This document shows positions 11,692-64,000 of a stretch of DNA of 64,000 nucleotides, piece after piece. Below the pieces are notes generated by a model, which was given only the letters and a program-made list of their open reading frames with translations, was not told the DNA's origin and searched no databases. The stretch is from Candidatus Omnitrophota bacterium (GTDB taxonomy: Bacteria > Omnitrophota > Gorgyraeia > Gygaellales > Profunditerraquicolaceae). Where the stretch lies: positions 270,252-334,251 of the forward strand of contig JBAZJY010000003.1 of the NCBI GenBank assembly GCA_041651115.1, written 5' to 3'. The translations under genes and the position numbers were made by a program. The first letter of the stretch is position 1; every line of letters starts with the position of its first letter.

Positions 11692-11693
11692 GC

Positions 11694-12926: not shown

Positions 12927-12932
12927 GCGGCT

Positions 12933-13859: not shown

Positions 13860-13876
13860 GGCCTTTTCTCCCTTTT

Positions 13877-44386: not shown

Positions 44387-45781
44387 CTACGATAATTCAA
44401 CTTCCTCGTCTTTACCGGGTATATAGACATCAAGGCCCGTGCGGGCAAAGGTATTGGCAAGGATCTGCAGCTGGTCTTCTTCCCCATGCACCAGGAAGAT
44501 GCGCTTAAGCGGCAGGCATGCGGAGACAAAATCCGCAAGGTCATTTTTGTCCGCGTGCCCGGAAAGTGCGTTGATCACCACAACCTCGGCATTAAGTTCG
44601 CATTCTACTCCGAATATCCGCACGAAGCGCTGCCTTTCTACGATCTTCCTGCCCAGCGTGTCTTTAGCCATATAGCCTACGACGAGCACGGTGTTGCGGG
44701 AATCTTCAATATTGTTTTTAAGGTGGTGCAGTATCCTGCCTGATTCGCACATGCCGCTTCCGGCAATGATCAGCATCGGGCGCTTATCCACGTTGAGCCG
44801 CTTGGATTCTATTTGGTCCCGGACAAACCTTAAATTCAAAAATTCAAACGGATTATCCCCCCGGCTGATCGCCTCACAGGTGCGATTATTCATATAGTCG
44901 CTGTGGCAGACGAATGAATCGGTGATCTCGGTTGCCAAGGGGCTATCCACATATATAGGTATAACGGGTATTGCCTTTTCCTTGAACAGCTCATTCAGCA
45001 GGTATATGACCTCCTGCGTGCGCTCAAGGCTAAACGCCGGAATCAAGATCTTGCCGCCGCGGCTGATCGTGCGATCAATCACTTCTTTCAGCCTTACCTT
45101 TGCCTGTTCAATAGGCGCGTGCTGCCTGCCGCCATAAGTACTTTCCATGATCAAATAATCCAACCCGCGAGGGGCTTGGGGATCGTCGAGCATCGGCAGA
45201 TTTTTCCTTCCCAGGTCCACCGCATAGCCTATCTTTATACTGCGGGACGGATCCCTGACTTCCAAAACTACAATACTTGAGCCGAGTATATGGCCGGCAT
45301 TATATAAAGTAACATGGGTATCCCTTGATACCAAAAAACTCCTGCCGTAAGTAAGGGGGTGGATCCTGCGGATTGCCCCGGAAACGTCTTTCTTGGTGTA
45401 AAGCGGTTTTACCGGAGCAAGCCCCAGCCGTTTATTGATCTTATTGACGTATTTGGTATCTTCTTCCTGGATTTTAGCCGAATCTTCAAGCATCAGCCGG
45501 CAGAGGTCTTTGGTAGCATGCGTAGAATATATCTTACAGCGCATCCCGCTTTTTATCAGGCTGGGGATATTGCCGCAGTGGTCAATATGCGCGTGAGAGA
45601 TAATCAGGGCGTTTATTTTGCGGGGGTTATAATGAAAAGTGGTATTAATCTCATAGAAATCACGGCGCCGGCCCTGGAACAGGCCGGCATCAAGCAGGAT
45701 CTCCGACTTATCGCTGGATACAAGATGGCTTGAACCGGTAACGGTCTTTGCCCCTCCCAGAAACTTAATTTTTACCGGCAT
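44387..45781 (-). CDS. MBL-fold beta-CASP ribonuclease (RNase J / CPSF-like)
   Basis: HAHIDHCG metallo-beta-lactamase motif; beta-CASP and RNA-specificity-type C-terminus; 464 aa. Confidence 0.75.
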   Translation of the reverse strand: MPVKIKFLGGAKTVTGSSHLVSSDKSEILLDAGLFQGRRRDFYEINTTFHYNPRKINALIISHAHIDHCGNIPSLIKSGMRCKIYSTHATKDLCRLMLEDSAKIQEEDTKYVNKINKRLGLAPVKPLYTKKDVSGAIRRIHPLTYGRSFLVSRDTHVTLYNAGHILGSSIVVLEVRDPSRSIKIGYAVDLGRKNLPMLDDPQAPRGLDYLIMESTYGGRQHAPIEQAKVRLKEVIDRTISRGGKILIPAFSLERTQEVIYLLNELFKEKAIPVIPIYVDSPLATEITDSFVCHSDYMNNRTCEAISRGDNPFEFLNLRFVRDQIESKRLNVDKRPMLIIAGSGMCESGRILHHLKNNIEDSRNTVLVVGYMAKDTLGRKIVERQRFVRIFGVECELNAEVVVINALSGHADKNDLADFVSACLPLKRIFLVHGEEDQLQILANTFARTGLDVYIPGKDEEVELS

Positions 45782-46451
45782 GCTTGCTTTTCCTCATCTT
45801 GATCGCGACAAAAATCACTAAAACCAGGTAGATAAAACTAAAAATCAGGGCGGCTTTATTTGTGCCAAGGTAATTTACCAACTCCTGCGGGTCTTTGAGT
45901 ATGCCCTTACCGGCTCCGGAAATAATATACTGCACCCAGAAAATACGCACCGGCGAGCCAAGGCAAACTACGGCCATATACCTCTTGAAAGAGACATCCG
46001 CCAGGCCGGCGGCAAGGTCTAAGAAACGGAACGGCACCAGCGGAACGCTGCGCAGCAGAAAAAGCCCGAGAAAACCGCTGCTGCTTATTTTTTTATCAAG
46101 GCCGGCGCTGATATTGCCCAGATGGTCCTTAACAAACTGCCTGCCTAAAAATCTGCTCAAGGAAAACAATACCGCGGCATTTATCGCTTCGGCAATAAGA
46201 ATAAGCAGCGCGCTTACATAAGCCCCGAAGATAAACGCAGAGACAAGTTTAAAGATATCCTTGGATAGCCAAAAAAAGAAAGTAATAACGACATAGAGGC
46301 AGATAAAAATTATCCCGCTGTAGATCAGCGGGAATCTGCTGAAAAAACTCTCAGTTTTGTCCGGATCAATATGGAAATACCTGCCTAAAAGCCATAATAA
46401 AATAAGCCCTGCAGCGAGGATTAAAAATTTAAGCGTGGATTTCCGGGGCAT
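45765..46451 (-). CDS. DedA/TVP38 family membrane protein
   Basis: 228 aa multi-TM with the DedA signature region. Confidence 0.7.
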   Translation of the reverse strand: MPRKSTLKFLILAAGLILLWLLGRYFHIDPDKTESFFSRFPLIYSGIIFICLYVVITFFFWLSKDIFKLVSAFIFGAYVSALLILIAEAINAAVLFSLSRFLGRQFVKDHLGNISAGLDKKISSSGFLGLFLLRSVPLVPFRFLDLAAGLADVSFKRYMAVVCLGSPVRIFWVQYIISGAGKGILKDPQELVNYLGTNKAALIFSFIYLVLVIFVAIKMRKSKHAGKN

Positions 46452-48113
46452 TTAGCTATCGTAAGTAGAATAGTAATACGGAGTAAAGGCCTTGAATTCA
46501 GCGGCGCAGGTATCTACCAGCTTAAACGCCGGAGTTATGCTCAGCGATTTGCGCAAAGCGCAGATGTCCTCTTCCTTCTTGTTCAGCAGCGCTGCCAGCT
46601 GCTTGTCGCTGAAACCGTATTGCTTGGCTTCCAGAAGCGAATCCCGCGTAAGATCACCGCTGCCTGATACAATCCGCTTTTCCAGCTCAATGATCTCTTT
46701 TATATTATAGATGAACCAGCGGTCAACGCGGGAAAGTTCATATATTTTTTCCACGCTTACGCCGGCGCGCAGCGCATCGCCGATATAGAATATCCTCTCT
46801 GCGCCGGGGACCCTTACCTTCCGGTATATCCTTTCCAGCGACCCGTTATCTATTTTTGCGCTTTCCATGCCGCTAAACAACACGCTTTCAAGCCCTGCCT
46901 TTTTTATCTCAAGCGAGCGCAGGCCTTTTTGCAGCGCTTCCTTAAAAGTCCTGCCTATAGACATCACCTCGCCTACGGATTTCATGGAAACCGTAAGCGT
47001 GGGATCTGCGGAAGGGAATTTCTCAAACGTAAAACGCGGGATCTTGACTACGCAATAATCAATGGACGGCTCAAAACACGCGGGCGTTTCTTTAGTGATA
47101 TCATTGGGTATCTCATCCAGCGTGTATCCTACGGCAAGCTTTGCGGCAATCTTGGCAATGGGAAAGCCCGTTGCCTTGGAAGCAAGCGCCGAGCTTCTTG
47201 AAACGCGGGGATTCATCTCAATCACGACCTGCCTGCCGGTATCCGGATGCACGGCAAACTGGATATTAGACCCTCCGGTCTCAACGCCGATCTCTCTGAT
47301 ACAGGCGATCGAGGCATCGCGCATGCGCTGGTATTCCCTGTCGGTTAAAGTCTGCGCCGGGGCAACCGTAATGCTGTCTCCGGTATGCACGCCCATAGGA
47401 TCAAGGTTCTCAATAGAACAGATAATCACTACGTTATCTTTTGTGTCGCGCATTACCTCAAGCTCAAATTCTTTCCACCCGGCAACCGACTCCTCGATCA
47501 ATATTTCGCTGATCATACTGGAATCAAGGCCGGCTTTGGCAAGCAGCCGAAACTCTTCTATGTTATAGGCAACGCTGCCTCCGGTGCCGCCCAAAGTAAA
47601 GCTGGGGCGGATAATCACCGGAAAACCGATCCGCTCGGCTACTTTGCAGGCATCTTTTAAAGTATATGCCTTGCCGCTTCTGGGCAGGTCAAGGCCGATC
47701 TTCTGCATCGCATCCTTGAATAATTGCCTGTCTTCGGCTTTCTTGATCGCCTTAATGTTGGCGCCGATAGTTTCTACTTTGTATTTCTTGAGCACTCCCT
47801 TTTCAGCCAGCCCTACCGCGGTATTCAAAGCTGTCTGGCCGCCTAATGTCGGCAGGAGCGCGTCCGGTCTTTCTTTCGCGATAATTTTGGCGACGATATC
47901 CACGGTTATCGGCTCGATATAAGTGCGGTCCGCGGTCTGCGGATCAGTCATGATCGTCGCGGGGTTAGAATTAACCAAGACGACCTCAAACCCTTCCTGT
48001 TTTAGCACCTTGCAGGCCTGCGTGCCGGAATAATCAAATTCGCACGCCTGGCCGATGACGATCGGGCCGGAGCCGATGATCAGGATTTTTTTAATATCTG
48101 TCCGTTTGGGCAT
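46452..48113 (-). CDS. carB: Carbamoyl-phosphate synthase large subunit, N-terminal half only (split carB)
   Basis: 553 aa; begins [30 protein letters not shown]; ends at a genuine stop just after the DTCAAEF linker that normally begins the second ATP-grasp half; the next gene is unrelated (DedA). Confidence 0.85.
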
Positions 48114-48128
48114 ATTTTAAAGAGACTC

Positions 48129-48500
48129 CTAACAGGCGAAATTCTCTATTATCGAGCTGATTTGCTGGATATCAAAAGGCTTATTTATGGAATGCGCTGC
48201 GCCCTCTTGCCGGGCCTTCTGAAGCAGGTCATCAACCGCATAACCGGTCATCATTACATATTTTGCCGCCGGGTCAATCTTCTTGAGTTCCCTGAACGTT
48301 TCCAGGCCGTTCATCTGCGGCATCTTTACGTCCAGGAAAACCAGGTCAAACCTTTCCTGCCTTGCCGCTTCGATAGCCATGAATCCGTCTTCTACGATCT
48401 TTACGATTGCAGATTTTAACGCCAGAAAACGGGCAAGAAAATCCCTGACTACCTGCTCGTCATCTACTACCAAGACTTTTATTTTTCTATCGTTTTCCAT
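48129..48500 (-). CDS. Stand-alone response-regulator receiver (CheY-like), paralogous to REC1 of the tandem-REC proteins
   Basis: VLVVDDE...FLDVKMPQMNGLETFRELKKI...YVMMTGYAV...KPFD; start taken at MENDRK. Confidence 0.8.
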   Translation of the reverse strand: MENDRKIKVLVVDDEQVVRDFLARFLALKSAIVKIVEDGFMAIEAARQERFDLVFLDVKMPQMNGLETFRELKKIDPAAKYVMMTGYAVDDLLQKARQEGAAHSINKPFDIQQISSIIENFAC

Positions 48501-49602
48501 AGCGTTTCCCTCCAATTTTCTTTTTTGGCGGCCGCAGCAAACCGATGAACCGGTCAAAAAGATAATTTGCGTCATGCGGCCCCGGACCGGCTTCAGGATG
48601 GAATTGGACTGAAAATATCGGCCACCGTCTGTGCCGGATGCCTTCAAGGGTATGATCGTTCAAATTTATATGGGTTACTTCAATATCACGCTTACTCAAA
48701 GAACTCTCGTCCACGCAAAAGCCATGGTTCTGCACCGTAATATATACCCTTCCGGTCTTAAGGTCTTTGACCGGATGGTTCCCGCCATGATGGCCGAATT
48801 TTAGTTTATAAGTCTTACCGCCCATGGCCAGGCCCAGCATCTGCTGGCCCAAACAAATGCCGAAAATGGGAAGCTTGCCTAAAAGTTCTTTTACGGTATT
48901 GATAACGTACGATACCGCGGCCGGGTCTCCCGGCCCGTTGGAAAGCAAGAGGCCGTCGGGCTTGACCGCTAATATTTGCGCGGCACTGGAATCCGCCGGC
49001 ATCACGATCACCCGACAATTACGCTCTTCTAATGCGCGTAAAGTATTTAATTTTATCCCGCAGTCAAGCACTGCTACTTTATATTTACCCTGCTTATTCC
49101 ATTCATACGGCTTAGCGCAGGCAACACCTTTAACCAGGTCTACGCCTTCAAGACCCGGTGAAGACCTTGCCTTGACAATCAGGCTCTCATGATTAAGGTC
49201 TACGGTGGATAAGACCGCTTTCATTGCCCCTGCCTGCCGGATATGCAGGGTAAGCGCGCGCGTATCGATACCTTCTATACCGACGATATCGTTTGCCGCA
49301 AGATATTCGCCGAGTGACTGCTCCGCGCGCCAGTTGCTGGCGATCTTACTGTATTCTTTTACCACAAATCCTTCAACAAACGGCCTGCATGATTCAACGT
49401 CTTCTTTGTTTACGCCGTAGTTTCCGATCAAAGGATAGGTCATTGCCACGATCTGGCCTTTATAAGAAGGATCGGTAATGATCTCCTGATATCCGGACAT
49501 ACTGGTATTAAAAACGACTTCGCCGCACTTTTCTCCGGCAGCGCCGAAAGAACGGCCTCTGAATATTGTCCCGTCTTCTAAAACAAGCCTGGCTTCCGTC
49601 AT
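48487..49602 (-). CDS. carA: Carbamoyl-phosphate synthase small subunit (glutamine amidotransferase)
   Basis: 371 aa; class I GATase with Cys-His-Glu triad region. Confidence 0.95.
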   Translation of the reverse strand: MTEARLVLEDGTIFRGRSFGAAGEKCGEVVFNTSMSGYQEIITDPSYKGQIVAMTYPLIGNYGVNKEDVESCRPFVEGFVVKEYSKIASNWRAEQSLGEYLAANDIVGIEGIDTRALTLHIRQAGAMKAVLSTVDLNHESLIVKARSSPGLEGVDLVKGVACAKPYEWNKQGKYKVAVLDCGIKLNTLRALEERNCRVIVMPADSSAAQILAVKPDGLLLSNGPGDPAAVSYVINTVKELLGKLPIFGICLGQQMLGLAMGGKTYKLKFGHHGGNHPVKDLKTGRVYITVQNHGFCVDESSLSKRDIEVTHINLNDHTLEGIRHRRWPIFSVQFHPEAGPGPHDANYLFDRFIGLLRPPKKKIGGKRYGKR

Positions 49603-49606
49603 GTGA

Positions 49607-51130
49607 TTAGGTTACAAATAAATTACGGGAAGAGAACTTCCCGTCTGTCGTCAAATTAACGCCCAGCCTTTTTAACCCTACGTCGTCGCCGGGAGAAGGG
49701 ATATGCGTCATATGTATTTCGCAATTCCTTAGTTCTGTAAGTTTTTTCATCGCCAGCTCTGCCGTATGATTGGTCGTGGCGCTTATGGAAAGCGCGATCA
49801 GCGTTTCTTCCAGGTCCAGGCTTTCCGATTCTTCGTTTAAGATCCCCTGTTTCAGCATCGATATCTGGTTGATGATCTGCGGAGAAAGCAGGAGGATTTC
49901 GTCGGGGATACCGGCAAGCACCTTTAATGTATTGATGATCAGGCTTGAGGCGGCATGCATCAGTTTGGAATTCTTTCCGGTTACCACTTTCCCTCCGGAA
50001 AGCTCAAGCGCTGCGCCGCAGAATATGCCGGCGTTACCTTTACCTTTTGATTCCGCTTCTTCGGCAGCCTTTCTTGCTATTTCTACGACTTTCCTGTCCG
50101 TAAGCTTAACGCCTAATTCTTCCATTAAAAGCGCCACCCTCTCCGCGGCCTCTTTCTTTTCTATTCCTAAAACATATTCCGCATTATAGCGGAAATACCT
50201 GCGTATCAGCTCCTGCCGCGCCGCTTCCTGCACTGCGTCGTCGTCAATTATGCCGAAACCTGCGCGGTTAACACCCATATCCGTGGGAGAATTATACATC
50301 GGCAGATTACTTTTCTTCTCCAATATCTTATTTAAGATCAGTTTCAATATCGGGAAGCTTTCCACGTCCCGGTTATAATTTATCGCCGTTTCGTGGTAGA
50401 TATTCAAATGAAAAGGGTCAACGAGGTTAAAATCCTGTATGTCTGCGGTCGCCGCTTCATAAGCGACGTTTACGGGATGCTTAAGCGGAAGGTTCCAAAT
50501 GGGAAAAGTCTCAAACTTCGCGTATCCGGCATTCACGCCTTTTTTATGCTCGTGGTATAATTGCGAAAGGCAGGTAGAAAGTTTTCCGCTATTCGGCCCG
50601 GGACCGGTAACAACCATAACCTGGTTCTTTGTCTCTATATAGTCGTTCCTGCCAAACCCCTGTTCGCTGACAACCAGGTCTACGTTAACAGGATAGTTCT
50701 CTATCGGATAATGCAGATAAACCTTAACCCCGCGGCGCTCCAGCTTATTTTTGAATACGGCTGCCGAATGCTGCCCGGAAAACCTCGTGATCACTACGGC
50801 CAGAATATCCAGGCCCCATTTGCGCAGGTCGTCGATCAGCTTTAAAGTCGCGGCATCGTAAGTTATGCCAAAATCCCCTCTTACCCTGCCCCGTTCAATA
50901 TCGCCGGCATAAATGCAAAGGACAATGTCAATCTTGTCTTTTAATGATTGCAACAGCCTGATCTTTACGTTCGGGTCATATCCCGGCAGGACGCGCGCAG
51001 CATGGTAATCAAAACAAAGCTTACCGCCAAACTCAAGGCAAAGCTTACTATTAAACTTTTTAACCCTGTCTAATATCGCCGCAGTCTGTTCTTTGAGGTA
51101 TTTTTCGTTGTCAAAACCGGTCTTTTCCAT
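49607..51130 (-). CDS. Conserved hypothetical protein (UPF0371/DUF1846-like)
   Basis: 507 aa; N-terminus MEKTGFDNEKYLKEQ...LEFGGKL..DYHAARVLPGYDP resembles the UPF0371 family as I recall it; no catalytic motif recognised. Confidence 0.4.
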   Translation of the reverse strand: MEKTGFDNEKYLKEQTAAILDRVKKFNSKLCLEFGGKLCFDYHAARVLPGYDPNVKIRLLQSLKDKIDIVLCIYAGDIERGRVRGDFGITYDAATLKLIDDLRKWGLDILAVVITRFSGQHSAAVFKNKLERRGVKVYLHYPIENYPVNVDLVVSEQGFGRNDYIETKNQVMVVTGPGPNSGKLSTCLSQLYHEHKKGVNAGYAKFETFPIWNLPLKHPVNVAYEAATADIQDFNLVDPFHLNIYHETAINYNRDVESFPILKLILNKILEKKSNLPMYNSPTDMGVNRAGFGIIDDDAVQEAARQELIRRYFRYNAEYVLGIEKKEAAERVALLMEELGVKLTDRKVVEIARKAAEEAESKGKGNAGIFCGAALELSGGKVVTGKNSKLMHAASSLIINTLKVLAGIPDEILLLSPQIINQISMLKQGILNEESESLDLEETLIALSISATTNHTAELAMKKLTELRNCEIHMTHIPSPGDDVGLKRLGVNLTTDGKFSSRNLFVT

Positions 51131-51189
51131 CTTTTACCTATGAATTTATCGGATTATTATAGTATACAAAGACGGGATTGTAAAACAGA

Positions 51190-52938
<1,749 letters not shown>

Positions 52939-52956: not shown

Positions 52957-53436
52957 TTAGTTCTTCGGCTGGCGCGCCGATATGCTTAATGCCGAGAACT
53001 TACGCAGTTCAACGTCAATAAGGCCGTCGAGAGCGACAAAAGAATCCTTTAATTTTTTGACCTGCTCTTTTATTTTCTTTTCTGCCGGTTTGAACGCATC
53101 AAGATTGCTTATGCCGAGCTTATTGCTGTTTTTCACTGTGCCCAGCCACGCGGTGATAAATTTGATCGCGCTTTCGCCGCTGTCTTTCTTAGTCAAAGTT
53201 TCAAAAATGCCCAGCATGGAAAAATAAGCGTCTAACTGTGTTGCCGTAAGTATGCAGGAATCGAACATAGCGGTCAAAACAACGCTATCTTTTGTTTTGG
53301 GGGTCATCAAGCCCCTTATTTCCTGCGCCTGCCCAAGGACCTGATCGCGCAAGTCTACGATTTTAGAATCCAAGGCATAGGCGTTAAAAACACAAAACAG
53401 GGTTAACAGCAGAAAAAATACAACAGCTCTTTTCAT
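52957..53436 (-). CDS. Hypothetical secreted protein (signal peptide), last gene of the pseudopilus cluster
   Basis: MKRAVVFFLLLTLFCVFNAYA signal; no recognisable domain. Confidence 0.5.
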   Translation of the reverse strand: MKRAVVFFLLLTLFCVFNAYALDSKIVDLRDQVLGQAQEIRGLMTPKTKDSVVLTAMFDSCILTATQLDAYFSMLGIFETLTKKDSGESAIKFITAWLGTVKNSNKLGISNLDAFKPAEKKIKEQVKKLKDSFVALDGLIDVELRKFSALSISARQPKN

Positions 53437-53455
53437 AGCATCCTCCTTTGCCCGG

Positions 53456-54022
53456 TTAGGCCATTACGATCATCGCGATAGTTATCGAGCACTGCACAGT
53501 GCCGGTCTCCTTGGATTTCGGGCTGATCTGGTACTTTTCAATATTAAAGAGCGAATTCAGGTTCTCAATATTATACATGAACTCAATGACCTGCTCCATC
53601 TGCCCTTCGCAGCTTAAAACCACCTGGAATTTCTTGGTCCCGTCTTTCTCGGCTTTCACGCCTGCCGGCTTCATATCAACGATATAAAGCGAACTCTTAC
53701 CGGCTTGGTTCTCGACCTCCTTGAGGAAAGACGTTGTCGCCTCTTCTTCCGATTCGGGAGAACTGAAAAAAGAGGCGTATTTCTTTGACTCCAGGATGAT
53801 CTTCTCTTTCTGGGCGAGCATGCGCATATCCCTGACAATGCCGGTTTCCCCCTCCTTTATCGCGTTGTTCAACGAATTAATCCTGGAATAAACCGGATAG
53901 ATGATCAGCCTGTCAAGCGCTACAAGGGACAATGCTGTGGCCGCGGCGTAAAAAATGATCTTTTCCCTTTTAGACAAGCCGGAAAGGACTTTAAGCAAAG
54001 GCTGCAGCTGAAGCTTAAACAT
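53456..54022 (-). CDS. GspM/PilO-like bitopic assembly protein
   Basis: Single N-terminal TM + coiled coil + periplasmic domain, 188 aa, positioned after the GspL-like gene. Confidence 0.55.
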   Translation of the reverse strand: MFKLQLQPLLKVLSGLSKREKIIFYAAATALSLVALDRLIIYPVYSRINSLNNAIKEGETGIVRDMRMLAQKEKIILESKKYASFFSSPESEEEATTSFLKEVENQAGKSSLYIVDMKPAGVKAEKDGTKKFQVVLSCEGQMEQVIEFMYNIENLNSLFNIEKYQISPKSKETGTVQCSITIAMIVMA

Positions 54023-55494
54023 TATATCTTCCTGCCTTCCTGAAAACCGGTAATTTCAAAGTCTGTAACGTCTTTAGTACCTTCTCTCCTCTTGGTGGTA
54101 TATTTAGTTTTTACTTCCTTAAAATACTTTGACTTTTCCAGCTCTTCAACAAAAGTAAATACCGCCGACATTGATTCCGAGGCGCCCCGGAGAGAAACCT
54201 TGCCCTGGTCATCGAATTTCACGTCGCTTAGTTGCAGCTCGTCGCTGACAAGATTATATAACTCTACCAGCACCTCCAGAGAATATCCCCGCGCCGCTAA
54301 ATAAGCTTTTATCCTGCTGATGCGGTCAAAATCGCTTTCCAGTTTTTTTGCCTCTTCGTTCAAGATCTGATACCTGTCGGTCACCCTCTTTAAATATAAT
54401 CCTTTAAAATAAATGCCCGTGACCATTATAAAAAAGATAAGGATAAAATTCATCAGGATAAAGATCCCTGTTTTAATCAGCTCTTTACCTCTTTCTTCAA
54501 GCGTCTTCCTCAGCTTTATCTCTTCGGGCACAAGGTCAACTTTAAGCTTATCCCATGAAAAAAGCGCGGCAATGATATGCATAAAGGACATCTGCTTGGC
54601 CAGCGAAGCGGCGCGTCCGGCCTCAGCCGCAATCGGGATGCTTTTTATGTAGGGCAGGACCTTAACCGGCAGGTGCATGCTGTTATTTAACGTATCCTCC
54701 AGTTCCCTTACCGGCTCTATCGCTCCGGTAAGAATAAGCATATTAGGTATCTTTTCTATGTCTTCGTTCTGATAGGCCTCAAGCGAATGCAACAATTCTT
54801 CGACGAATTTCACCTCGTATTTTTGCTTTTCCGCCAGGATATGCTGGGTCCCGATAGGGATGCTCCGGACGAAGATCGGCTTATTTTTATAGGCGATGAC
54901 AAAATCGGAATGGTTTTCATCAAGGTGCACGATATTCACGGGCGGATCGCCATTTTCAATCTTTAGCATCTTACCGGTAAATACGGCCAGCCCCTCGGCA
55001 GCCAGAAGCACCCTTTCAAGCCGAAGGCCTGCTTTATCAAGTATTTCAAGGTGCTTCTTTACCAGGCTGCGCGCTATAATTACCAGGAGTATTTTGGTAT
55101 AGCTGTTCTTATACGTGCCTATCTCAATGTAATCGGCAATGATCTCGTCGCGCGAATAAGGCGTATGCCTGCCTGCCTGGAGGTTGATGATCTCTTTTAT
55201 TTCCCGGGGGTCTACCGAAGGGACTTCGATGTTTTTTGTGATCACCGAATGCGAAGGGATTACGCTGATTACGCCGGGATTTTTGACTTTGAATTCCGTG
55301 GCGCTGCCCCTGACGACATTGGCAATGTCCTCGGCGATCAAGCCGCTGATATTGCGGGTGGCTATGCCGGCGATCTCAACTTTATTCAGAGAAATCACCG
55401 CATGGACGAACTTAAGATTATCGCCGGTAAAATCTATGCCGATCATTTCTTTGTTAACCATATCGGCGAATTTTTTTACGTTGATCCCAACCAT
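54022..55494 (-). CDS. GspL-like (PilM-PilN fusion type) assembly protein: cytoplasmic actin-like domain + TM + periplasmic domain
   Basis: 490 aa; PilM-like N-terminal region, central TM helix (IFILMNFILIFFIMVTGIYF), PilN-like C-terminus. Confidence 0.6.
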   Translation of the reverse strand: MVGINVKKFADMVNKEMIGIDFTGDNLKFVHAVISLNKVEIAGIATRNISGLIAEDIANVVRGSATEFKVKNPGVISVIPSHSVITKNIEVPSVDPREIKEIINLQAGRHTPYSRDEIIADYIEIGTYKNSYTKILLVIIARSLVKKHLEILDKAGLRLERVLLAAEGLAVFTGKMLKIENGDPPVNIVHLDENHSDFVIAYKNKPIFVRSIPIGTQHILAEKQKYEVKFVEELLHSLEAYQNEDIEKIPNMLILTGAIEPVRELEDTLNNSMHLPVKVLPYIKSIPIAAEAGRAASLAKQMSFMHIIAALFSWDKLKVDLVPEEIKLRKTLEERGKELIKTGIFILMNFILIFFIMVTGIYFKGLYLKRVTDRYQILNEEAKKLESDFDRISRIKAYLAARGYSLEVLVELYNLVSDELQLSDVKFDDQGKVSLRGASESMSAVFTFVEELEKSKYFKEVKTKYTTKRREGTKDVTDFEITGFQEGRKI

Positions 55495-56579
55495 CAGGGC
55501 TCCCGCCAGTATAAGATTTTCCCGTTACGGTCCAAAATGCAATAGATATCGCTTACGTTGGCGCTGTTGTTCAATTTTACCCGGCAGCGGACGAAGAAAT
55601 TTTCCGACCTGACACCAAGATATTTACCGGATATGTCGGTTAATTGTGCTAACTCACTGGAGCTTAAATGCGCGAACTCGCTGAGCTTCGGCACGATCTC
55701 TGAGGCCTGCACAAAAATGTTGTCGTCTTCGGTCCCGGTTACCCTGTCTTCTCCCGCGCGGAAAAGGATGATATTTTTTACGATATTTTCATCCAATCCC
55801 AATGCCGTCAACACGAGCTTGGAAGCAGTATTGATATTGACCCTGCCGCTGCCGTAGATTGTAACATAGTTTCTTACTTTACTGAATATATTTTCATCCA
55901 TGCCTTTAACCAATAATAATTCTTCCGGGATGTCAAACTTGGCGTTCTTTGCTTCATAAGGATACGGCAGGCCCTTGTAATAATTACTCTCCGCGCCTCC
56001 GGAAAATACCCCCGACTCAGCGTCGGAGTCGCGCCAGTCAATAATACAGGCTGCCAATTCCTGCGCCCGCGCTTCATCATATCCAAGTAAGCCCATAAAC
56101 AACTGCCGCAAAATCTTCAATACCGCTTCCTTATTTTCACTGGATATGGTATTTACGTTGATCTTGCTCTCTTCGTCAACGAGCCCGTAACGCAAGCCCT
56201 GATCGCCCGACTCTTCGTCAACGTAATCATAACAGATATTGGCAGTCCCCGCGCCTACGCCTATATTCATGAATACGGCCGGGTTGCTGCTCCAGGCGCC
56301 GTTTAATGCGGCATACTGCGGGCCTTCCATCTGCCATTTTTTTAATTCAGAAATTGTTTTTTTTACCCCTGCCTCGGCAATAAAACGCAGGCTCGCCCGT
56401 TCATCCAGCCGCTTTGCCATCACTGCCTTCTGCCTCACCTGATAACCCAATATTACCGCAAACGCGGAAAGCAGGCAAAGAGACCACAGGACGATCACTA
56501 AAATACTCCCTGCGCAATTAACCCGCGATGGGGATAAATACTGACTGTATAAATTTACGTGTCTGATCGCCATCTCCAA
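55494..56579 (-). CDS. GspK-like minor pseudopilin
   Basis: N-terminal hydrophobic segment (GSILVIVLWSLCLLSAF), large periplasmic domain with helix-hairpin-helix-like VNINTASKLVLTALGLDENI. Confidence 0.6.
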   Translation of the reverse strand: MEMAIRHVNLYSQYLSPSRVNCAGSILVIVLWSLCLLSAFAVILGYQVRQKAVMAKRLDERASLRFIAEAGVKKTISELKKWQMEGPQYAALNGAWSSNPAVFMNIGVGAGTANICYDYVDEESGDQGLRYGLVDEESKINVNTISSENKEAVLKILRQLFMGLLGYDEARAQELAACIIDWRDSDAESGVFSGGAESNYYKGLPYPYEAKNAKFDIPEELLLVKGMDENIFSKVRNYVTIYGSGRVNINTASKLVLTALGLDENIVKNIILFRAGEDRVTGTEDDNIFVQASEIVPKLSEFAHLSSSELAQLTDISGKYLGVRSENFFVRCRVKLNNSANVSDIYCILDRNGKILYWREP

Positions 56580-57108
56580 TTTCCAATTCTACCTTGACTG
56601 CCGGAGGCATCCCGGATTTCTGCCATGTATCCTGCCAAAAGTATATGCCGTCATCCTCTTTAAAAACATAATATTGGAATTTTAACGATTTTATATTAGT
56701 TAAAGACTGGGTAAGGCTTCCCTGGCTGCTGCCGCTATATACCTGGGAATAATCATCCTGCTGCCGGGTTAAAAGCTCGGCCTGCGGGTCATAAGAATAG
56801 GTAACCTGCCCCACGGTGGTATTCTGAAGGCGGGTGCTTTTTACAAGCGTAGGCAGGGATAATTCTTCTTCTCTTCCGGAAAAGTTTATTGAAGCCGAGT
56901 TTACGCCGTTACGCAGGTCGCGGGAAAATTTATCAAGGAAGATCACGGCATCTTCCTGAGGCAGCTGCCTGGTTATCTTCTGCCATATCCTGAGGCCGTT
57001 ATTCAATACCCCGTACATTGCCATTGAAACCATTGCCAGGAGGGTAACAACCAGCAGTAACTCTATCAAGGTAAGGCCAGTTTTTGTTTTCCGGTCTGGA
57101 TGCATCAT
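56518..57108 (-). CDS. GspJ-like minor pseudopilin (prepilin-type N-terminal cleavage/methylation domain)
   Basis: KTGLTLIELLLVVTLLAMV class III signal. Confidence 0.6.
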   Translation of the reverse strand: MMHPDRKTKTGLTLIELLLVVTLLAMVSMAMYGVLNNGLRIWQKITRQLPQEDAVIFLDKFSRDLRNGVNSASINFSGREEELSLPTLVKSTRLQNTTVGQVTYSYDPQAELLTRQQDDYSQVYSGSSQGSLTQSLTNIKSLKFQYYVFKEDDGIYFWQDTWQKSGMPPAVKVELEIGDGDQTRKFIQSVFIPIAG

Positions 57109-57569
57109 TTTTCCCGCAATATCTCATATGTGCTTCTTGAAAGCGCCAAATTTCTTTTGCCGGTCTTCCATGAAAGGGAAAGGTCCAGGGCGTACAGCCG
57201 CGCCTGCTCATCGAGCGGGCCGCAAGCTAAACTCCACCGGAAAATTTTATTGTTTTCCGTAAACTCTCCGCCTTCCTGGCCGGCCAAAGGGACCCCCTGC
57301 CTGAGTTTATCCTGTGCCTGCCAGATCCTATTATCCGCCCAGGAAGCAACGTTCAAGTAGTCGGTATAATAATTAAAGGTATCCAAAGAAATAAAGAAAG
57401 CTTCGTATACCAATACCGTGCCCAGCGCCAGGGCCGCAGAGGCAGCCATTACTTCCAAAAAAGTGAATCCTGCAACGGCCCGCTTAATCCCAGTTTTTAA
57501 CATCATCTGAACTCTCAACGCCGTCTTTACCCAGCGAATAAAGGTCGTAATCGGCCGGCCGGTGCTCAC
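57105..57569 (-). CDS. GspI-like minor pseudopilin
   Basis: AGFTFLEVMAASAALALG prepilin-type N-terminus; 154 aa. Confidence 0.55.
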   Translation of the reverse strand: MSTGRPITTFIRWVKTALRVQMMLKTGIKRAVAGFTFLEVMAASAALALGTVLVYEAFFISLDTFNYYTDYLNVASWADNRIWQAQDKLRQGVPLAGQEGGEFTENNKIFRWSLACGPLDEQARLYALDLSLSWKTGKRNLALSRSTYEILREK

Positions 57570-57897
57570 CGGGGCATTTATATTTATATTCCCTGCCCCA
57601 GGGATCTATGGGCTTTTTTTCAATATACGGCCCGTGCCAGTTTGTTGCTGATCCGGGTTTATCAAGTAGGGCGTTCAACCCTTCATCCGAACTGGGGAAA
57701 CTGCCGTTATCCAGCTCATATAATTTTAAGGCAGTGGCAATATTGGCGCGGATATCCGCTTCCGCGGCGGTAGAACGCGCCTGCTCAGTTCGGCCGGTAA
57801 GCCGGGGCATGACCATAGCTACGAGGGCGCCGATAATAATCACGACCAGCATCAGCTCAATAAGCGTAAATGCCCTTACAGCGTGTTTTTTATCCAT
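57484..57897 (-). CDS. gspG: Type II secretion major pseudopilin GspG
   Basis: AFTLIELMLVV...YELDNGSFPSSDEGLNALLDKP...WHGPYIEKKPIDPWGREYKY; start at MDKKHA. Confidence 0.8.
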   Translation of the reverse strand: MDKKHAVRAFTLIELMLVVIIIGALVAMVMPRLTGRTEQARSTAAEADIRANIATALKLYELDNGSFPSSDEGLNALLDKPGSATNWHGPYIEKKPIDPWGREYKYKCPGEHRPADYDLYSLGKDGVESSDDVKNWD

Positions 57898-58753
57898 TGT
57901 TTTTCTCCTCCAGGTATTTTCTCCATTCATTATCCAGCTCTGCGATGCTGCGGATATGCATCGGATAAACAAATCTAAGCGCCTCCTCGAGGGATTTACC
58001 GTCGCGCAGCTGCCGGCAGAGCTCAATGAATTTCTCCGAACCGAAACGCACAATCAAAAAGTCCACCAGCGATACCGCTTGCAGATAAAACGCATTCACC
58101 AGTTTCTCGCCGCTTAAAAACAATACCCCTTTCCTGTTATCGTTTGTAGTTACGGTATTGATATAGATGCTTTCGTCTGCCCTTATTTTCCTGACATCCA
58201 GAACCATCATCTCTTCCAGCGGCAATACCAGATTATCTTTATAGGCCTGGCTTGCCATGGCTTTTATGTAATTCCTGTCCGGCTTTTCCGCCCATTGCGC
58301 AATGCCTTCATCCAGCCAGAGGGGCACTTCGCCTTTAAAACCCACGAAGTCCCGGAAGATCAAATGCGCCATCTCATGCGGCAGGAGGGATTCCACAAAA
58401 CCCTTGCTCCAGGCATAACTGATTATTTTTTTACCACGGTAATCAGCCATACCCTGCGACCAATAGGGCTGGTGCGTGGCGGAAATAAAAGACTTATGGT
58501 CGGGATAGATATAGATCTTTACGCGGTTGTCCCACGTCCAAAATTCCGAATAGCGCGCGTATCCGAGGTCTCCGGCGATCCTCTTGTAATAATATTCGCT
58601 TTTATCCAGTACGTTCTTCGCAAATCCCGGGTCATTCGTGAAATAGACGATAAAGTGTTCGCTTTTAAGCTGTTCCCAATCCTGGCCGCAGGCATTCTGT
58701 TGCGGCAGCAAAAAACACAAAGATGTTAACGCGCAGAGTATTGCTCCCCTCAT
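57890..58753 (-). CDS. Secreted HExxH protein (putative zinc metallopeptidase), possible cargo of the secretion system
   Basis: Signal peptide MRGAILCALTSLCFLLPQQNACG; LLPHEMAHLIF motif; 287 aa. Confidence 0.5.
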   Translation of the reverse strand: MRGAILCALTSLCFLLPQQNACGQDWEQLKSEHFIVYFTNDPGFAKNVLDKSEYYYKRIAGDLGYARYSEFWTWDNRVKIYIYPDHKSFISATHQPYWSQGMADYRGKKIISYAWSKGFVESLLPHEMAHLIFRDFVGFKGEVPLWLDEGIAQWAEKPDRNYIKAMASQAYKDNLVLPLEEMMVLDVRKIRADESIYINTVTTNDNRKGVLFLSGEKLVNAFYLQAVSLVDFLIVRFGSEKFIELCRQLRDGKSLEEALRFVYPMHIRSIAELDNEWRKYLEEKNNG

Positions 58754-59505
58754 AATCCTTTCAGTTGCTTAATCTTATTTATTTCCTCATATATTTTATC
58801 TATCTCAAAAGGTTTATACAGGCACCCCTTGATATTAAGCTTCAGCTGCTTGATATCTTCACAACGCTCGACATACCCGGTGATCAGAATAATCGCCAAG
58901 TCCGGCTTTGCCTCTTGTATCTTTAAATAAAGCTCCGCTCCCTGCATATCCGGAAGCACCGTATCCACAAACGCCAGGTCAAAATCCTTTTCTTTCAGGC
59001 TTTCCAGCGCTTCTTTGCCGGTTTTAGCCGTAACCACGTCGTAGATGTCTTCTTTAAGCAGCTTTTTGAAAAAATTTAAGACTACTTCTTCGTCATCGAC
59101 AATAAGCATCTTCAAAACACCCCGAGGCGTCTTATTTTTTATGCAACCGTCAATAAGTTTTTTTATTTGCATCACGTCAAAGGGCTTTTTAAGCGCGTGG
59201 GCTACGCCTTCCTTCTTGGCCTGCTCAAGGATCTCATTCACCGCATAGCCCGTCATCATCACGTACGTAGTATCCGGGCTTATTTTTTTGAGCTCCCTGA
59301 ATGTTTCCAGGCCGTCAATACCGGGCATTCTGACATCAAGGAATACGAGGTCGTAGCTGGATTTCTTTGCCATCTCAATCGCCTTGAACCCGTTCTCCGC
59401 GGCTTCAGCGTTCAAGCCGTTTACGGTCAAAAGCTGGGTCAAGAAATTCCTCACCACTTCCTCGTCGTCAACAATCAACACATTAATATTTTTTTTAGCA
59501 TCCAT
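58750..59505 (-). CDS. Tandem-receiver (REC-REC) response regulator without output domain
   Basis: Two complete receiver domains, each with DD, phospho-acceptor D, T and K residues (VLIVDDEE...FLDVRMPGIDGLETF...MMTGYAV...KKPFD; MLIVDDEE...FVDTVLPDM...ILITGYV...YKPFE). Confidence 0.85.
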   Translation of the reverse strand: MDAKKNINVLIVDDEEVVRNFLTQLLTVNGLNAEAAENGFKAIEMAKKSSYDLVFLDVRMPGIDGLETFRELKKISPDTTYVMMTGYAVNEILEQAKKEGVAHALKKPFDVMQIKKLIDGCIKNKTPRGVLKMLIVDDEEVVLNFFKKLLKEDIYDVVTAKTGKEALESLKEKDFDLAFVDTVLPDMQGAELYLKIQEAKPDLAIILITGYVERCEDIKQLKLNIKGCLYKPFEIDKIYEEINKIKQLKGL

Positions 59506-59548: not shown

Positions 59549-61081
59549 CTAATCCGATTCGTAACTTACGCGCAGCACTTCCTTTAAAGTAGTTATCCCG
59601 TTGATAACCTTTTCGCAGCCATCCTGATATAAGGTTCTCATGCCGTTTGCCTGCGCCGCCTGCTTAATTTCGGCAGCCGGGCATTTTTTAGTGACCATCT
59701 CTTTTATCGGATCATCAATAACCAGCAATTCAAAGATACCAATGCGCCCCTTATACCCGGTATGCCGGCAAAAAAGACAGCCCTTGGAACGAAAAAGGCC
59801 AGCCTTTGCATCTTTATCCATGCCCAAACTTTGACGGATTTCTTCATTAGGAGAATACTCTTCTTTGCATTTCGGGCAAATGACCCTTACCAGCCTCTGC
59901 GCCAGAATGCCGATAACGCTGGCAGAGATCAAGAACGGCTCAATGCCCATATCAACCAGCCTGGTGATCGCGCCGGAAGCGTCATTGGTGTGCAGGGTGG
60001 AAAAAACCAAATGCCCAGTAAGCGCTGCGCGAATAGCGATCTGCGCAGTCTCCAGATCCCTGATTTCGCCGACCATGATAATGTCCGGGTCCTGGCGCAG
60101 TATTGCCTTTAAGCCGCTGGCAAAAGTAAAGTTTATTTCGGGGTCTACCTCACCCTGATTTATCCCCTGCAAAAGCTGCTCCCGCGGGTCCTCAAGGGTT
60201 ATAATATTCTTCTCCTGCGAATTTAATTTTGTCAACGTTGAATACAAGGTGGAAGTCTTTCCGCTGCCGGTCGGCCCGGTAACCAGAATTATCCCGAACG
60301 GCTTACGAATCAACGATTCAAAAACCTGTAAATTCTGCGCGGAAAACCCTAATTTATCAAGGCTTAAAAACGCGGAAACGCGGTCTAATATCCTGATCAC
60401 CACTTTCTCGCCGAAAGCGATCGGAAAGGTAGAGATACGCAGATCCACTTCCCGGTCTTCTATGCGCACGCGAAAACGCCCGTCTTGAGGCAGGCGGTGG
60501 TCTGTGATGTCTAATCCGGCAACGACCTTGATCCGCGGCACAACGGGCAAATTCATTCCCCGCGGAAAAGCGGCAAGCACGTGCATGATGCCGTCTATCC
60601 TTAGGCGGACTTTTACCTGCTCTTCTTCCGGCTCGATATGTATGTCGCTGGCATTATCTTTTATCGCCTGCGCGATGATCAAGTTAACCAGCTTTATTAC
60701 CGGCGGCTCTTCAACTATCCTCTGTATCCTTACCAGATCAAGTTTATCTTCCTGCACAAACGTAACCCCGCCTGCCTGCAGGCCCTTAATGATATCGTCG
60801 ATGGAGTTGCTCACGGTATAATATTGCTCAATTGCCTTGACAATCTCAACCGGGTCTGCCTTTACTGCCTGGATCTTGCATCCGGAAACCGCCGCTGCCT
60901 CATCTAATGCGATAAAATCAGCCGGATTACTCATCGCAACGGTCAAAGTATCCCGGACCTGAAAAATAGGAATGATCTTATGCCTCCTGGCTACTCTTTC
61001 GGGAATAGTATTTAATATAGCGGGATCGATTATATAATTATTCAGGTCAACCGAAGGGACGTCTTTACCGGGTTTAAGCAT
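59549..61081 (-). CDS. gspE: GspE/PilB-family secretion ATPase
   Basis: T2SE N-terminal domain, Walker A GPTGSGKTSTL, tetracysteine CPKC...CLFC, 510 aa. Confidence 0.9.
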   Translation of the reverse strand: MLKPGKDVPSVDLNNYIIDPAILNTIPERVARRHKIIPIFQVRDTLTVAMSNPADFIALDEAAAVSGCKIQAVKADPVEIVKAIEQYYTVSNSIDDIIKGLQAGGVTFVQEDKLDLVRIQRIVEEPPVIKLVNLIIAQAIKDNASDIHIEPEEEQVKVRLRIDGIMHVLAAFPRGMNLPVVPRIKVVAGLDITDHRLPQDGRFRVRIEDREVDLRISTFPIAFGEKVVIRILDRVSAFLSLDKLGFSAQNLQVFESLIRKPFGIILVTGPTGSGKTSTLYSTLTKLNSQEKNIITLEDPREQLLQGINQGEVDPEINFTFASGLKAILRQDPDIIMVGEIRDLETAQIAIRAALTGHLVFSTLHTNDASGAITRLVDMGIEPFLISASVIGILAQRLVRVICPKCKEEYSPNEEIRQSLGMDKDAKAGLFRSKGCLFCRHTGYKGRIGIFELLVIDDPIKEMVTKKCPAAEIKQAAQANGMRTLYQDGCEKVINGITTLKEVLRVSYESD

Positions 61082-61451
61082 CCTTCCCCTCCAATAGCTC
61101 TTTTATTTTAGCGGTAAGCTCCTTTAGATCAAACGGCTTGGTAATATAGCAGTCCGCGCCTACTTTCTCGCCCCATTCCTTATCTTCTTTTTGGCTTTTT
61201 GCCGTGAGCATGATCACCGGTATATTCTTATACCTTTGATCAAATTTTAAGAGCCGGCAGACCTGATATCCGTCCATGTCCGGAAGCATCAAATCCAAAA
61301 TAATCAGGTCCGGATTTTCCGACTTTGCCTTATTATAAGCGGTATTTCCGTCGGTAGCAACCGTGACTTCATAGCCGGTTGCCTCCAGCCGCATCTTTAT
61401 GGTCGTAACAATATCCGGCTCATCATCTACCAAAAGGATCTTTTTAGCCAT
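61074..61451 (-). CDS. Single-domain CheY-like response regulator
   Basis: KILLVDDEPDIV...LIILDLMLPDMDGY...VIMLTAK...KPFD. Confidence 0.85.
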   Translation of the reverse strand: MAKKILLVDDEPDIVTTIKMRLEATGYEVTVATDGNTAYNKAKSENPDLIILDLMLPDMDGYQVCRLLKFDQRYKNIPVIMLTAKSQKEDKEWGEKVGADCYITKPFDLKELTAKIKELLEGKDA

Positions 61452-63061
61452 TATAACGCAACCTCCTTAATCGGAAGCGTAAAGCTTAATTTGCTCCCCT
61501 TGCCTAATTCGCTCTCTGCCCAGATCTTCCCACCGTGCTTTTCCACGATGCCTTTGGATATACTAAGGCCTAAGCCGGTGCCCTTAACCAGCGCTTTAGC
61601 GCCAGGCCGGCTGACTTGATAAAATTTATCAAAAATCTTTTCCAAGTCAGCCGTGGGTATGCCTGAGCCGGTGTCTATGACGTCAGTTTGGATAAAATCT
61701 CCTTCTCTGAATATATTAACGTTGATTGAACCGCCGGAAAGCGTAAATTTCAAAGCATTGCCTACAAGATTAGTGATCACCTGCGTGATCCTGTCGGCAT
61801 CCGCCTGAATGCGCGGCAGGCCGGCTGTAAAAGAAGAGGATAATTTGATCCCTTTTTCTTCTGCGATCTTTTGCAAGAAACCGATGGCATCGCTTGCCAG
61901 CGCAGCGATATCCAATTGCTGCTTATTTAACTGTATCCTGCCTGCTTCAATACGCGAAATATCCAAGAGTTCAGAGATCAAACGGTTTAGGCGGTCAATA
62001 TTGCGCTCGATAAGCAGGAGGCATTCATTCTGGCTTTGGTTCAGGCTGCCGGTAATCCCTTCCAACAGGTTCTCGGCCGCGCCTTTCATCGCCGCTAAAG
62101 GCGTGCGCAACTCATGGGAAACCAAAGAAACAAAATCATTTTTCATCCGCTCAATCTCCCGCTCTTTGGTCACGTTCCTCAAAACCATTACCACGCCCAG
62201 CGGCTTCTCCGTTTCATCCTGTATGCAATTTGTTTCAACGTGGATGATCCGGGCAGACGGCTTCTCCATATATATTTCCTTGATCGGCGGAAAACATACC
62301 TTCTTTTTTACGGCGTCGGGCGGATTGCTTAATCCCGATTCATGGAAAAATTTTAACAGCGCTGCGGCATCCAATTCCTGATGGTAGTAACCCAATATAT
62401 CCCGGGCCGCGGCATTAAAAATAACCACCTGATTTTTTTCATCAAACATGATTACCCCTTCCGACATCCGCTCTACCATTATCTTCATCTTGCTTTTCTC
62501 GGCTGCCAGTACGGACTGCAATCTTTCAATCGCAGACGAAGCCTGAGAGGCAATAGTATAAAATAATTTTATGTCGTCGTCGGAATAAAAAACATTTTTA
62601 ACGCTGCTTACGCTTAATATACCTACTGCCTTGTCCCTTAGGAACAGCGGGACGTCAAAAGACGAGATTATCGACTGAAGCGGAGAACCCGCTTCTGCCA
62701 ACTCCCCCTTAAAATCCATGGCCAGTTCTTCTTCGGCGACTGCCTCCCCCCTTAAGTTATTTAAAGCAGACAACACCTTGCGTTTTGCCGAATCAATAAC
62801 CTCCGTTTTTAATGGATGTGCTATGCGGACCGCCATTTTTGCCTTTTTTTCTTCTTCAGAAACGATCAACGATATACAAAGGTCGTAATCTATGATCTTA
62901 TACAGGGAATCCATGATAAAACGCAGAATATCGTCATAATTAAGCGTATAGCTGATGCTGTTGCTTATATCATAAAGCACGGATAATTCAAAAAGCCGCT
63001 GTTTTAGCTCTTGCGAAAGGCACTGATTCTCTTCCTTTAATTTTTCCGTCTCAACCGTCAT
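61451..63061 (-). CDS. Sensor histidine kinase with GAF and PAS-like sensory domains (cytoplasmic)
   Basis: HisKA H-box [19 protein letters not shown]; HATPase_c G-boxes ([18 protein letters not shown]); no TM helix evident. Confidence 0.85.
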
Positions 63062-63802
63062 CTATTTCTTTGATTTCGCCGTTTCAATATACTTAAGGAT
63101 ATTATTTATTTCAAAAGGTTTATACAGGCATCCGGAAACCGCCAGTGTACCTTCAATTGACTTCGCCTTCTGGGGAAATCCGGTGATCAAGACGATATTT
63201 GCCTCCGGCAGAATGGCTTTAAGCTCATTATACGCATCCACTCCGTTGGCATCCTTAAGCACAAGATCAAGGAAAATAAGGTTAAATTTATTTTGCTTTG
63301 CCAGCATAACGGCTTCCTCTTTACTATGCGCACTTTTACAGGAGAGATTTTTTTGCGCCAGCAAAGAAGAAAAAAATTCCAGGATTGTTTCATCATCGTC
63401 AATAACAAGGATGTTCAACTGCTCCCCGGATTTCACGGCACTGACCTTATCCAGGACCTCTTTTATCTGACTGATGTCAAAAGGTTTGCGTATGTCGCCG
63501 TACGCGCCTTCTTTACGGGCCTGTTCAAGCGTGTCCTCTACGGCATATCCGGTGATCATTACTGCCTGCGCATCAGGATCAATCTGACGGATCTGGCGGT
63601 AAGTCTCAAGGCCGTTAAGCCCGGGCATGCGCACGTCAATAAAATAAAGGTCGAATTTACCTGCCTTCACCGCTTCCACCGCCTTATATCCGTCTTCAAC
63701 GTCAATTACTTCCAGCCCCAGTAAAGACAAAAGACGTTTAAAAAAATCCCTGACGATTTTTTCATCATCCACTACCAGAACCTTAAGCTTAGCTTCACCC
63801 AT
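63062..63802 (-). CDS. Tandem-receiver (REC-REC) response regulator, paralog of 58750..59505
   Basis: [14 protein letters not shown]...[21 protein letters not shown]...VMITGYAV...RKPFD then ILVIDDDET...[11 protein letters not shown]...VLITGF...YKPFE. Confidence 0.85.
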
Positions 63803-64000
63803 TTTCTTCCTCCTTGTGCCCTGCCAAACTTGATAAAGGCAAATTTATCCTGAAAGTAGCCCCTTTACCCTGCTCGCTTTCAACCTTAATATTTCCATGA
63901 TGCTCCTTGATGATACCGTAAGCAATGGAAAGGCCAAGGCCCGTGCCCTCTCCCATGGGTTTAGTAGTAAAAAATGGCTCAAAGATTTTATCCATATCGT
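63795..64000 (-). CDS. Histidine kinase, C-terminal HATPase fragment (gene continues beyond window end)
   Basis: [51 protein letters not shown]2/G3 boxes; ATGA overlap with the downstream REC-REC. Confidence 0.7.

Follow-up and report, generated by a model that had tools for sequence, protein, structure and literature searches.

We describe two proteins, A and B, encoded in a 64,000-nucleotide stretch of DNA from a Candidatus Omnitrophota bacterium (contig JBAZJY010000003.1, positions 270,252 to 334,251; hereafter the window). Each is built of two receiver (REC) domains, REC1 and REC2, and together they belong to a phylum-specific family within the known class of stand-alone tandem-receiver regulators. 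Comparing gene contexts at 12 loci, we observed that two classes of histidine kinase are each paired with a receiver class of their own. This pairing was previously undescribed and is our main new result: on the sequence evidence, the REC-REC proteins look like the cognate outputs of one kinase class (class I below), and not like sinks for the arm made of a histidine kinase, a single REC and a GspE-type ATPase (HK-REC-GspE) that lies between them. The two proteins are located as follows.

59505..58750, minus strand: REC-REC protein A, 251 amino acids (aa); REC1 at about nt 59481-59152 (aa 9-118), REC2 at about nt 59109-58771 (aa 133-245), from Pfam and alignment.
63802..63062, minus strand: REC-REC protein B, 246 aa, a paralog of A; REC1 at about nt 63781-63452, REC2 at about nt 63415-63080, from Pfam.

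A first-pass annotation of the window had described both open reading frames (ORFs) as two complete receivers and nothing else, with the acidic pocket, the phospho-acceptor Asp, the Thr and the Lys retained in all four domains. ORF positions, Pfam and alignment fully agree with this description. Pfam finds two Response_reg (PF00072) stretches in A (E 2e-53, 179.7 bits) and two in B (E 4e-46, 156.2 bits), for a gathering cut-off of 30.2; no other family rises above its gathering score in either protein, and no output domain is seen. When the four REC domains are aligned with the two single receivers of the window (48129..48500 and 61074..61451), the Asp pair, the acceptor Asp, the Thr and the Lys-Pro are found in all four (D13/D14, D57, T85 and K107 in REC1 of A; D137/D138, D181, T209 and K231 in REC2 of A; equivalent residues in B). 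The motif FxDVRMPGxxGLETxR....IxPD...MxTGYAV, which the annotation had quoted in support of paralogy, is common to REC1 of A, REC1 of B and the single REC at 48129..48500.

An AlphaFold2 (AF2) model of A, run with the family alignment, reaches a predicted local distance difference test score (pLDDT) of 90.5 and shows two complete (beta/alpha)5 folds. DSSP assigns five strands and five helices to each half of the model, with an inter-domain link of about five residues between helix 111-125 and strand 131-136. The whole length of A is accounted for by two receiver folds, which makes it a stand-alone tandem-receiver regulator. A PDB sequence search returned only generic receivers, with Spo0F and NtrC1 at the top, while a fold search returned only generic receivers and, as a two-receiver chain, PleD with a poor global fit. 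There is no curated family specific to A and B in NCBIfam or Pfam; the NCBIfam matches reflect single-domain similarity and lie far below cut-offs.

Searching 5.8 billion proteins, we recovered over 100 full-length homologs of 225-280 aa (40-98% identity), and every homolog whose source is named comes from Candidatus Omnitrophota or Omnitrophica. These sequences originate from independent assemblies, many of them metagenomes; 112 homologs of 225-280 aa align end to end, and the junction between domains is conserved. A fusion of two CheY-like genes by a frameshift has a negligible probability in view of such a set of same-length homologs from independent assemblies with a conserved junction, and of two paralogs with the same architecture in one window. 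We found no support for it: A and B are single genuine genes.

An exhaustive HMMER pass over 1.84 billion representatives yielded 308 sequences with E <= 1e-30. Many are REC-REC proteins of about 240-260 aa, some are REC-REC-REC proteins of 362-374 aa, and others are hybrid kinases: the REC-REC architecture is widespread and the close family is small. Four relatives of 362-374 aa (P0121, P0122, P0130 and P0133), 33-40% identical to A, match it from about residue 120 of their own sequence and look like triple-receiver (REC-REC-REC) proteins.

Residue counts and column entropies were obtained from an alignment of 114 family members. D13, D14, D57 and K107 of REC1 are present in 114 of 114 sequences, and at the Thr position 108 sequences have T and the other 6 have S. 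REC2 is a little less strict: its acceptor Asp is present in 113 of 114 sequences, and the Lys and a T or S in 105 each. Conservation is also better overall in REC1, whose mean column entropy is 1.40 versus 1.84 for REC2. Conservation is strongest in helix alpha1, in the beta3-alpha3 loop and alpha3, in beta4 and the following loop, and in the KPFD turn.

Over 246 columns, A and B share 41% identity; their REC1 domains share 51% and their REC2 domains 37%. In a neighbor-joining tree, A groups with P0001-P0005, including L083_3384 and L084_10001, and B with L083_627, L084_9162, P0043, P0049 and P0076. The paralogy noted in the first-pass annotation is thereby confirmed. The annotation had further seen in the two copies a duplicated signalling cassette; as a recent local event this does not hold, since A and B share only 41% identity and fall in different clades, each with its own orthologs in other Omnitrophota, and since the two flanking kinases are of different classes. 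The sequences point instead to an old A/B duplication that is conserved within the phylum. Related genomes hold two to three REC-REC copies, often side by side (loci L081, L084, L086 and L087).

Scans of genome and metagenome contig collections were swamped by generic receiver patterns (KMLIVDDE; [LIV]D[VIM][RK]MP..) and gave almost no true members. Gene contexts were therefore taken from 11 loci found by exact protein look-up and fetched with flanks of 8-10 kb (designated by L numbers), which together with the window make 12 loci. In this set, two kinase classes separate cleanly. Class I kinases carry a HEINNPL H-box (LAGGVAHEINNPLTGVLNN) and a FEPFFTTK motif, and their sensors are HAMP, dCache or CHASE4 domains. 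Class II kinases carry SHELRTPL and FDKFYQV motifs and have cytoplasmic GAF-(PAS) sensors.

The genes that follow the two classes also differ. Eight class I kinases, including the L083 ortholog and a kinase truncated by the end of the window, directly precede a REC-REC gene, a REC-PilZ gene or a single REC of the REC1 type. REC-REC comes directly after the kinase in L083, L084, L085 and L086; REC-PilZ does so in L169 and in L171, where REC-REC is next; and in L082 the kinase is followed by a REC1-type single REC, then by REC-REC. Altogether, class I kinases precede REC-REC in seven loci. Class II kinases, for their part, are followed by a single REC of about 125 aa in seven cases out of seven, and PilB is next in five of these (the window, L081, L085, L087 and L169; it is absent in L083 and L168). 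In L084, the fetched flanks beside the kinase contain three REC-REC genes and no other response regulator. In L086, a pair of REC-REC genes comes immediately after the class I kinase, and an OmpR-type regulator with a kinase of its own lies downstream.

Receiver sequences show the same division. According to NCBIfam, REC1 best resembles the receivers of NtrC, AtoC and ZraR, and the 125-aa REC those of PhoB and RpaB. Scored with the hidden Markov model of the family, the single REC at 48129..48500 obtains 194 bits, the N-terminal RECs of REC-PilZ proteins 143-156 bits and the PhoB-like single RECs 70-81 bits. Helix alpha1 is a main determinant of kinase-regulator specificity, and it is alike in REC1 and REC2: A has EEVVRNFLTQLL in the former and EEVVLNFFKKLL in the latter. 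This likeness suggests that one and the same kinase class serves both domains. We also considered REC2 as an acceptor for the GAF-PAS kinase, which would make the protein an integrator of two inputs. This option is not favored: REC2 shares 35-38% identity with REC1-type receivers but less with the PhoB-like REC, to which REC2 of A is 27% identical and REC2 of B gives no match, and its helix alpha1 is like that of REC1.

REC-PilZ proteins are encoded in L081 (19539-20279), L086 (5362-6114), L169 (3352-4095) and L171 (5668-6432), and both of those tested (L081 and L086) have a receiver of the REC1 type. These sequences suggest that REC1 can be joined to REC2 or to PilZ, or stand alone. The last case occurs in the window itself, as the minus-strand REC at 48129..48500, which is 54% identical to REC1 of both A and B. 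It lies between carA (49602..48487, a 14-nt overlap) and the carB N-terminal half, an unusual location for a signalling gene. The carB gene (46452-48113, minus strand) is itself split or truncated: only a 553-aa N-terminal half is present (CPSase_L_D1, D2, D3), and the next gene encodes a VTT-domain membrane protein, not the second ATP-grasp half.

PixH, PilH and Sinorhizobium CheY1 act as phosphate sinks. A REC-REC protein with no target of its own might likewise drain phosphoryl groups through its two acceptor sites and damp the true output regulator, for which the single REC beside PilB, the REC-PilZ protein or the REC1-type single REC would be candidates. Such a role would fit the intact acceptor pockets, the concentration of conservation on the kinase-facing surface, the tandem copies (two to three per locus would raise capacity), the frequent presence of other single-domain regulators nearby and the precedent of PixH (PMC11181946). 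However, the flanks of L084 contain no other regulator to damp, and in L086 it is again two REC-REC genes that directly follow the kinase. A sink for the HK-REC-GspE arm, in particular, is unlikely because REC1 and the receiver partnered with the GAF-PAS kinase are of different classes. Moreover, full-length, family-specific conservation across the phylum, REC2 included, exceeds the needs of a sink. We retain the sink as a rival explanation, an unlikely one on balance.

The first-pass annotation had named a connector role beside that of a sink, and we regard this as highly improbable. The REC-REC protein would then be a Spo0F-like phosphorelay intermediate, handing its phosphoryl group through a histidine phosphotransfer (Hpt) or Spo0B-type protein to a terminal regulator. 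Spo0F is indeed the best solved relative of REC1 by sequence and fold (E 3e-19; template modeling (TM) score about 0.92-0.95 over one domain), but the similarity is generic, at 31% identity. Furthermore, no Hpt was found in the Pfam-scanned ORFs of the window (in 1-44000, those of at least 150 aa) or among the annotated genes of the 11 related loci, and hybrid kinases occur only in L082, which has two REC-containing kinases, and in none of the other loci.

The preferred reading, in which REC-REC proteins are outputs of class I kinases, can be followed in the window, where 52.9-64 kb is one run of minus-strand genes. Besides A and B, this run contains:

64000..63795, minus strand: class I histidine kinase of which only the C-terminal part falls in the window; it runs 8 nt into the start of B.
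63061..61451, minus strand: class II GAF-PAS-HisKA-HATPase kinase, cytoplasmic, from Pfam and motifs.
61451..61074, minus strand: single REC of 125 aa with a PhoB/OmpR-like receiver; overlaps the kinase upstream by 1 nt and PilB downstream by 8 nt.
61081..59549, minus strand: PilB/GspE-type assembly ATPase with an MshEN/T2SSE N-terminal domain; Pfam T2SSE E 1e-135.
57890..58753, minus strand: secreted Peptidase_MA_2 protein with a HEMAH motif; its first 4 nt overlap the end of A.
52957..57897, minus strand: operon resembling a pseudopilus or type II secretion system (T2SS): GspG (57897-57484), two minor pseudopilins, GspK, a PilM-PilN fusion, a PilO-like protein and a 159-aa ORF.

As the annotation had noted, A and B bracket the HK-REC-GspE module formed by the kinase at 63061..61451, the REC at 61451..61074 and the ATPase at 61081..59549. 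The latter scores 611 bits with GspE and 583 bits with PilB in NCBIfam, both just under the equivalog cut-offs. The class II kinase has no predicted transmembrane or hydrophobic segment. From the truncated kinase to GspG, successive junctions measure -8, 0, -1, -8, +43, -4 and -8 nt; GGAGG-like sites precede the gene starts, and no terminator-like site is seen between the genes of this unit. The best promoter-like site, just upstream of pyrG (52938..52910), marks the end of the unit. The overlaps indicate that the 125-aa REC is translationally coupled to both the class II kinase and pilB. The truncated kinase is presumed to be the cognate kinase of B, as it is of class I and overlaps B. A, in turn, overlaps the leading gene of the Peptidase_MA-GspG operon by 4 nt and is translationally coupled to it.

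A Peptidase_MA_2 protein (HEMAH motif, N-terminal signal-like segment) is encoded just ahead of the pseudopilins in the window (57890-58753) and in three related loci: L083 (4142-4996), L085 (13784-14626, where an unrelated ORF intervenes) and L169 (9626-10489). NCBIfam has no family for it. By its position, it looks like a conserved, uncharacterized component of the pseudopilin operon.

In seven of the 12 loci, REC-REC lies within the same fetched flanks as PilB or pseudopilin genes. It comes directly after PilB in the window, L081, L087 and L169; it stands ahead of the Peptidase_MA-GspG operon in the window and L083; it ends the pseudopilin operon in L168; and in L085 it is two genes upstream of PilB, a REC1-type single REC filling the post-PilB slot. 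This recurrent position beside the PilB/GspE ATPase and the pseudopilin operon suggests a control of the motor. Since A and B have no output domain, they can work only by contacting other proteins or by accepting phosphate.

We may thus hypothesize the following mechanism. Architecture, intact catalytic residues, family conservation, operon layout and the kinase-receiver pairing are observed, whereas phosphotransfer, the target and whether the effect is positive or negative are what we infer. Class I kinases would phosphorylate REC-REC proteins, the truncated kinase acting on B and probably on A too. Phosphorylated REC-REC would then bind and tune the PilB/GspE motor or its platform, in the manner of DrdR with PilB and PilT in Xanthomonas. 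A second arm would reach the same ATPase from the cytoplasmic GAF-PAS kinase through the PhoB-like single REC coupled to pilB. That REC-REC proteins are class I kinase outputs which, once phosphorylated, tune the PilB/GspE motor or its platform is a reading we favor tentatively and hold somewhat short of probable. Its support comes from the layouts of L084 and L086, from the repeated embedding of REC-REC genes in PilB and pseudopilin operons, and from the analogies with DrdR and PixG.

Several observations weigh against this proposal. Conservation of REC1 peaks at the active-site face, with beta5 and alpha5 variable, a pattern that would fit a docking surface for the kinase no worse than one for an effector. 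The orientation of REC1 relative to REC2 is not confident in the AF2 model of A (predicted TM score 0.59). The gene most tightly coupled to pilB is the single REC, not REC-REC. In L083, the closest relative (69% identity), the operon is the same but PilB is missing, and no pilus or T2SS gene is seen in the fetched flanks of L082, L084, L086, L170 and L171 (5 of 12 loci), which show kinases and unrelated neighbors only. Finally, the proposed tie of A and B to PilB is one of genomic adjacency, direct in four of the 12 loci.

The five loci without pilus genes in their fetched flanks leave room for another explanation, in which REC-REC proteins would be general-purpose outputs of class I kinases unrelated to pilus or T2SS, with targets in metabolism or transport for instance, and adjacency to PilB would reflect the clustering of signalling genes in small genomes. 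Some neighbors at these loci are genes for periplasmic binding proteins, Feo, phosphate transport or FAD-oxidoreductases, and the window has a REC1-type receiver between carA and carB. On the other hand, REC-REC directly follows PilB in four loci of different clades and lies in or beside pseudopilin operons in three more, and A is translationally coupled to the Peptidase_MA-GspG operon. We consider a role independent of the pilus rather improbable.

An experimental parallel to the proposed motor control is provided by DrdR from Xanthomonas campestris pv. campestris, also a REC-REC protein with no output domain: it binds both PilB and PilT, whose ATPase activity it raises (PMC13507683). DrdR thus shares the architecture of A and B and works by protein-protein contact at the type IV pilus motor. 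However, its N-terminal REC is described as a truncated (beta/alpha)4 pseudo-receiver, leaving REC2 as its one canonical domain; in A and B, both receivers are complete and canonical. DrdR is also an orphan, whereas the REC-REC genes studied here lie directly behind kinases, B overlapping its kinase by 8 nt.

PleD (REC-REC-GGDEF; PDB 1w25 and 2v0n) and the REC-REC fragment 3luf were the best whole-chain structural matches, although the superposition covers essentially one domain (TMq 0.41-0.46, root-mean-square deviation 8-12 A). In PleD, REC1 is phosphorylated and REC2 serves as an adaptor. The better conservation of REC1 in our family recalls PleD, but A and B have no GGDEF domain (A ends at residue 251), and the REC2 acceptor pocket is kept in most family members. 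The PleD family PRK09581 gives 88 bits versus a cut-off of 474.

FrzZ of Myxococcus xanthus consists of two receiver domains without output domain. It is a kinase-phosphorylated output that controls pilus-dependent and gliding motility via protein interactions (PMC3441718). FrzZ differs from A and B by its input: it is fed by the CheA-type kinase FrzE in a Che-like operon, whereas the sensors here are of the HisKA type and no CheA, CheW or MCP is found in the window or the 11 related loci. A similar difference separates A and B from the PixG/PixH pair of Synechocystis and the PilG/PilH pair of Pseudomonas, in which a phosphorylated receiver binds or activates PilB (phosphorylated PixG binds PilB1 in Synechocystis) and a second receiver antagonizes it as a sink (PMC11181946): these are single-REC or PATAN-REC proteins fed by CheA-type kinases, while A and B are REC-REC proteins apparently fed by HisKA kinases.

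A few other features of the window deserve mention. A minus-strand group at 8707-14689 comprises a prepilin peptidase A24 (13877-14689), a MoxR AAA ATPase (12933-13859), a DUF58 protein (11694-12926) and a 994-aa Big_2 protein (8707-11691); genes for a secretin or a GspF/PilC platform were not seen in any part of the window. In L083 (9528-13952), the 160-aa ORF that ends the pseudopilus operon is directly followed by genes for a beta-CASP nuclease and a Plug-domain outer-membrane protein. Between these neighbors, the window (44387-52827) has about 7 kb encoding pyrG, DUF1846, carA, REC, the N-terminal half of carB and VTT, which on sequence comparison points to a rearrangement or insertion between close lineages. 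The minus strand carries nearly all large ORFs of the window, and 30 of the 32 two-kb bins have a negative GC skew, consistent with one replichore and co-directional transcription.

To our knowledge, stand-alone tandem-receiver proteins are common, yet only FrzZ and, very recently, DrdR have been studied, and how two receivers without output transmit a signal is poorly understood. The family described here offers a natural case: both receivers are canonical, the kinases are next door, the pairing of kinases and receivers is clean, and the PilB/GspE motor and pseudopilin operon lie in the same transcription unit as A and B. Kinase specificity, two-site phosphorylation and motor binding are directly testable with recombinant proteins. 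We know of no description of how type IV pili are regulated in Omnitrophota, and a literature search pairing response regulators with Omnitrophota returned nothing relevant. These pili have been proposed to mediate host attachment in the phylum, in a study where the terms 'two-component' and 'response regulator' do not occur (PMC10066038). A more ambitious view, doubtful at present, is that REC-REC proteins provide a phylum-wide, Che-independent control of a type IV pilus/T2SS-like motor: class I kinases sensing the envelope would charge both acceptor sites of one protein, and the doubly phosphorylated form and the GAF-PAS/single-REC arm would both engage PilB/GspE or the PilM-N platform, forming a switch with two arms and several sites that would act on the pili used for host attachment or predation in these nanobacteria. 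The type of protein was already known; the family and its wiring are new, and by analogy with the systems above a link to the motor is plausible.

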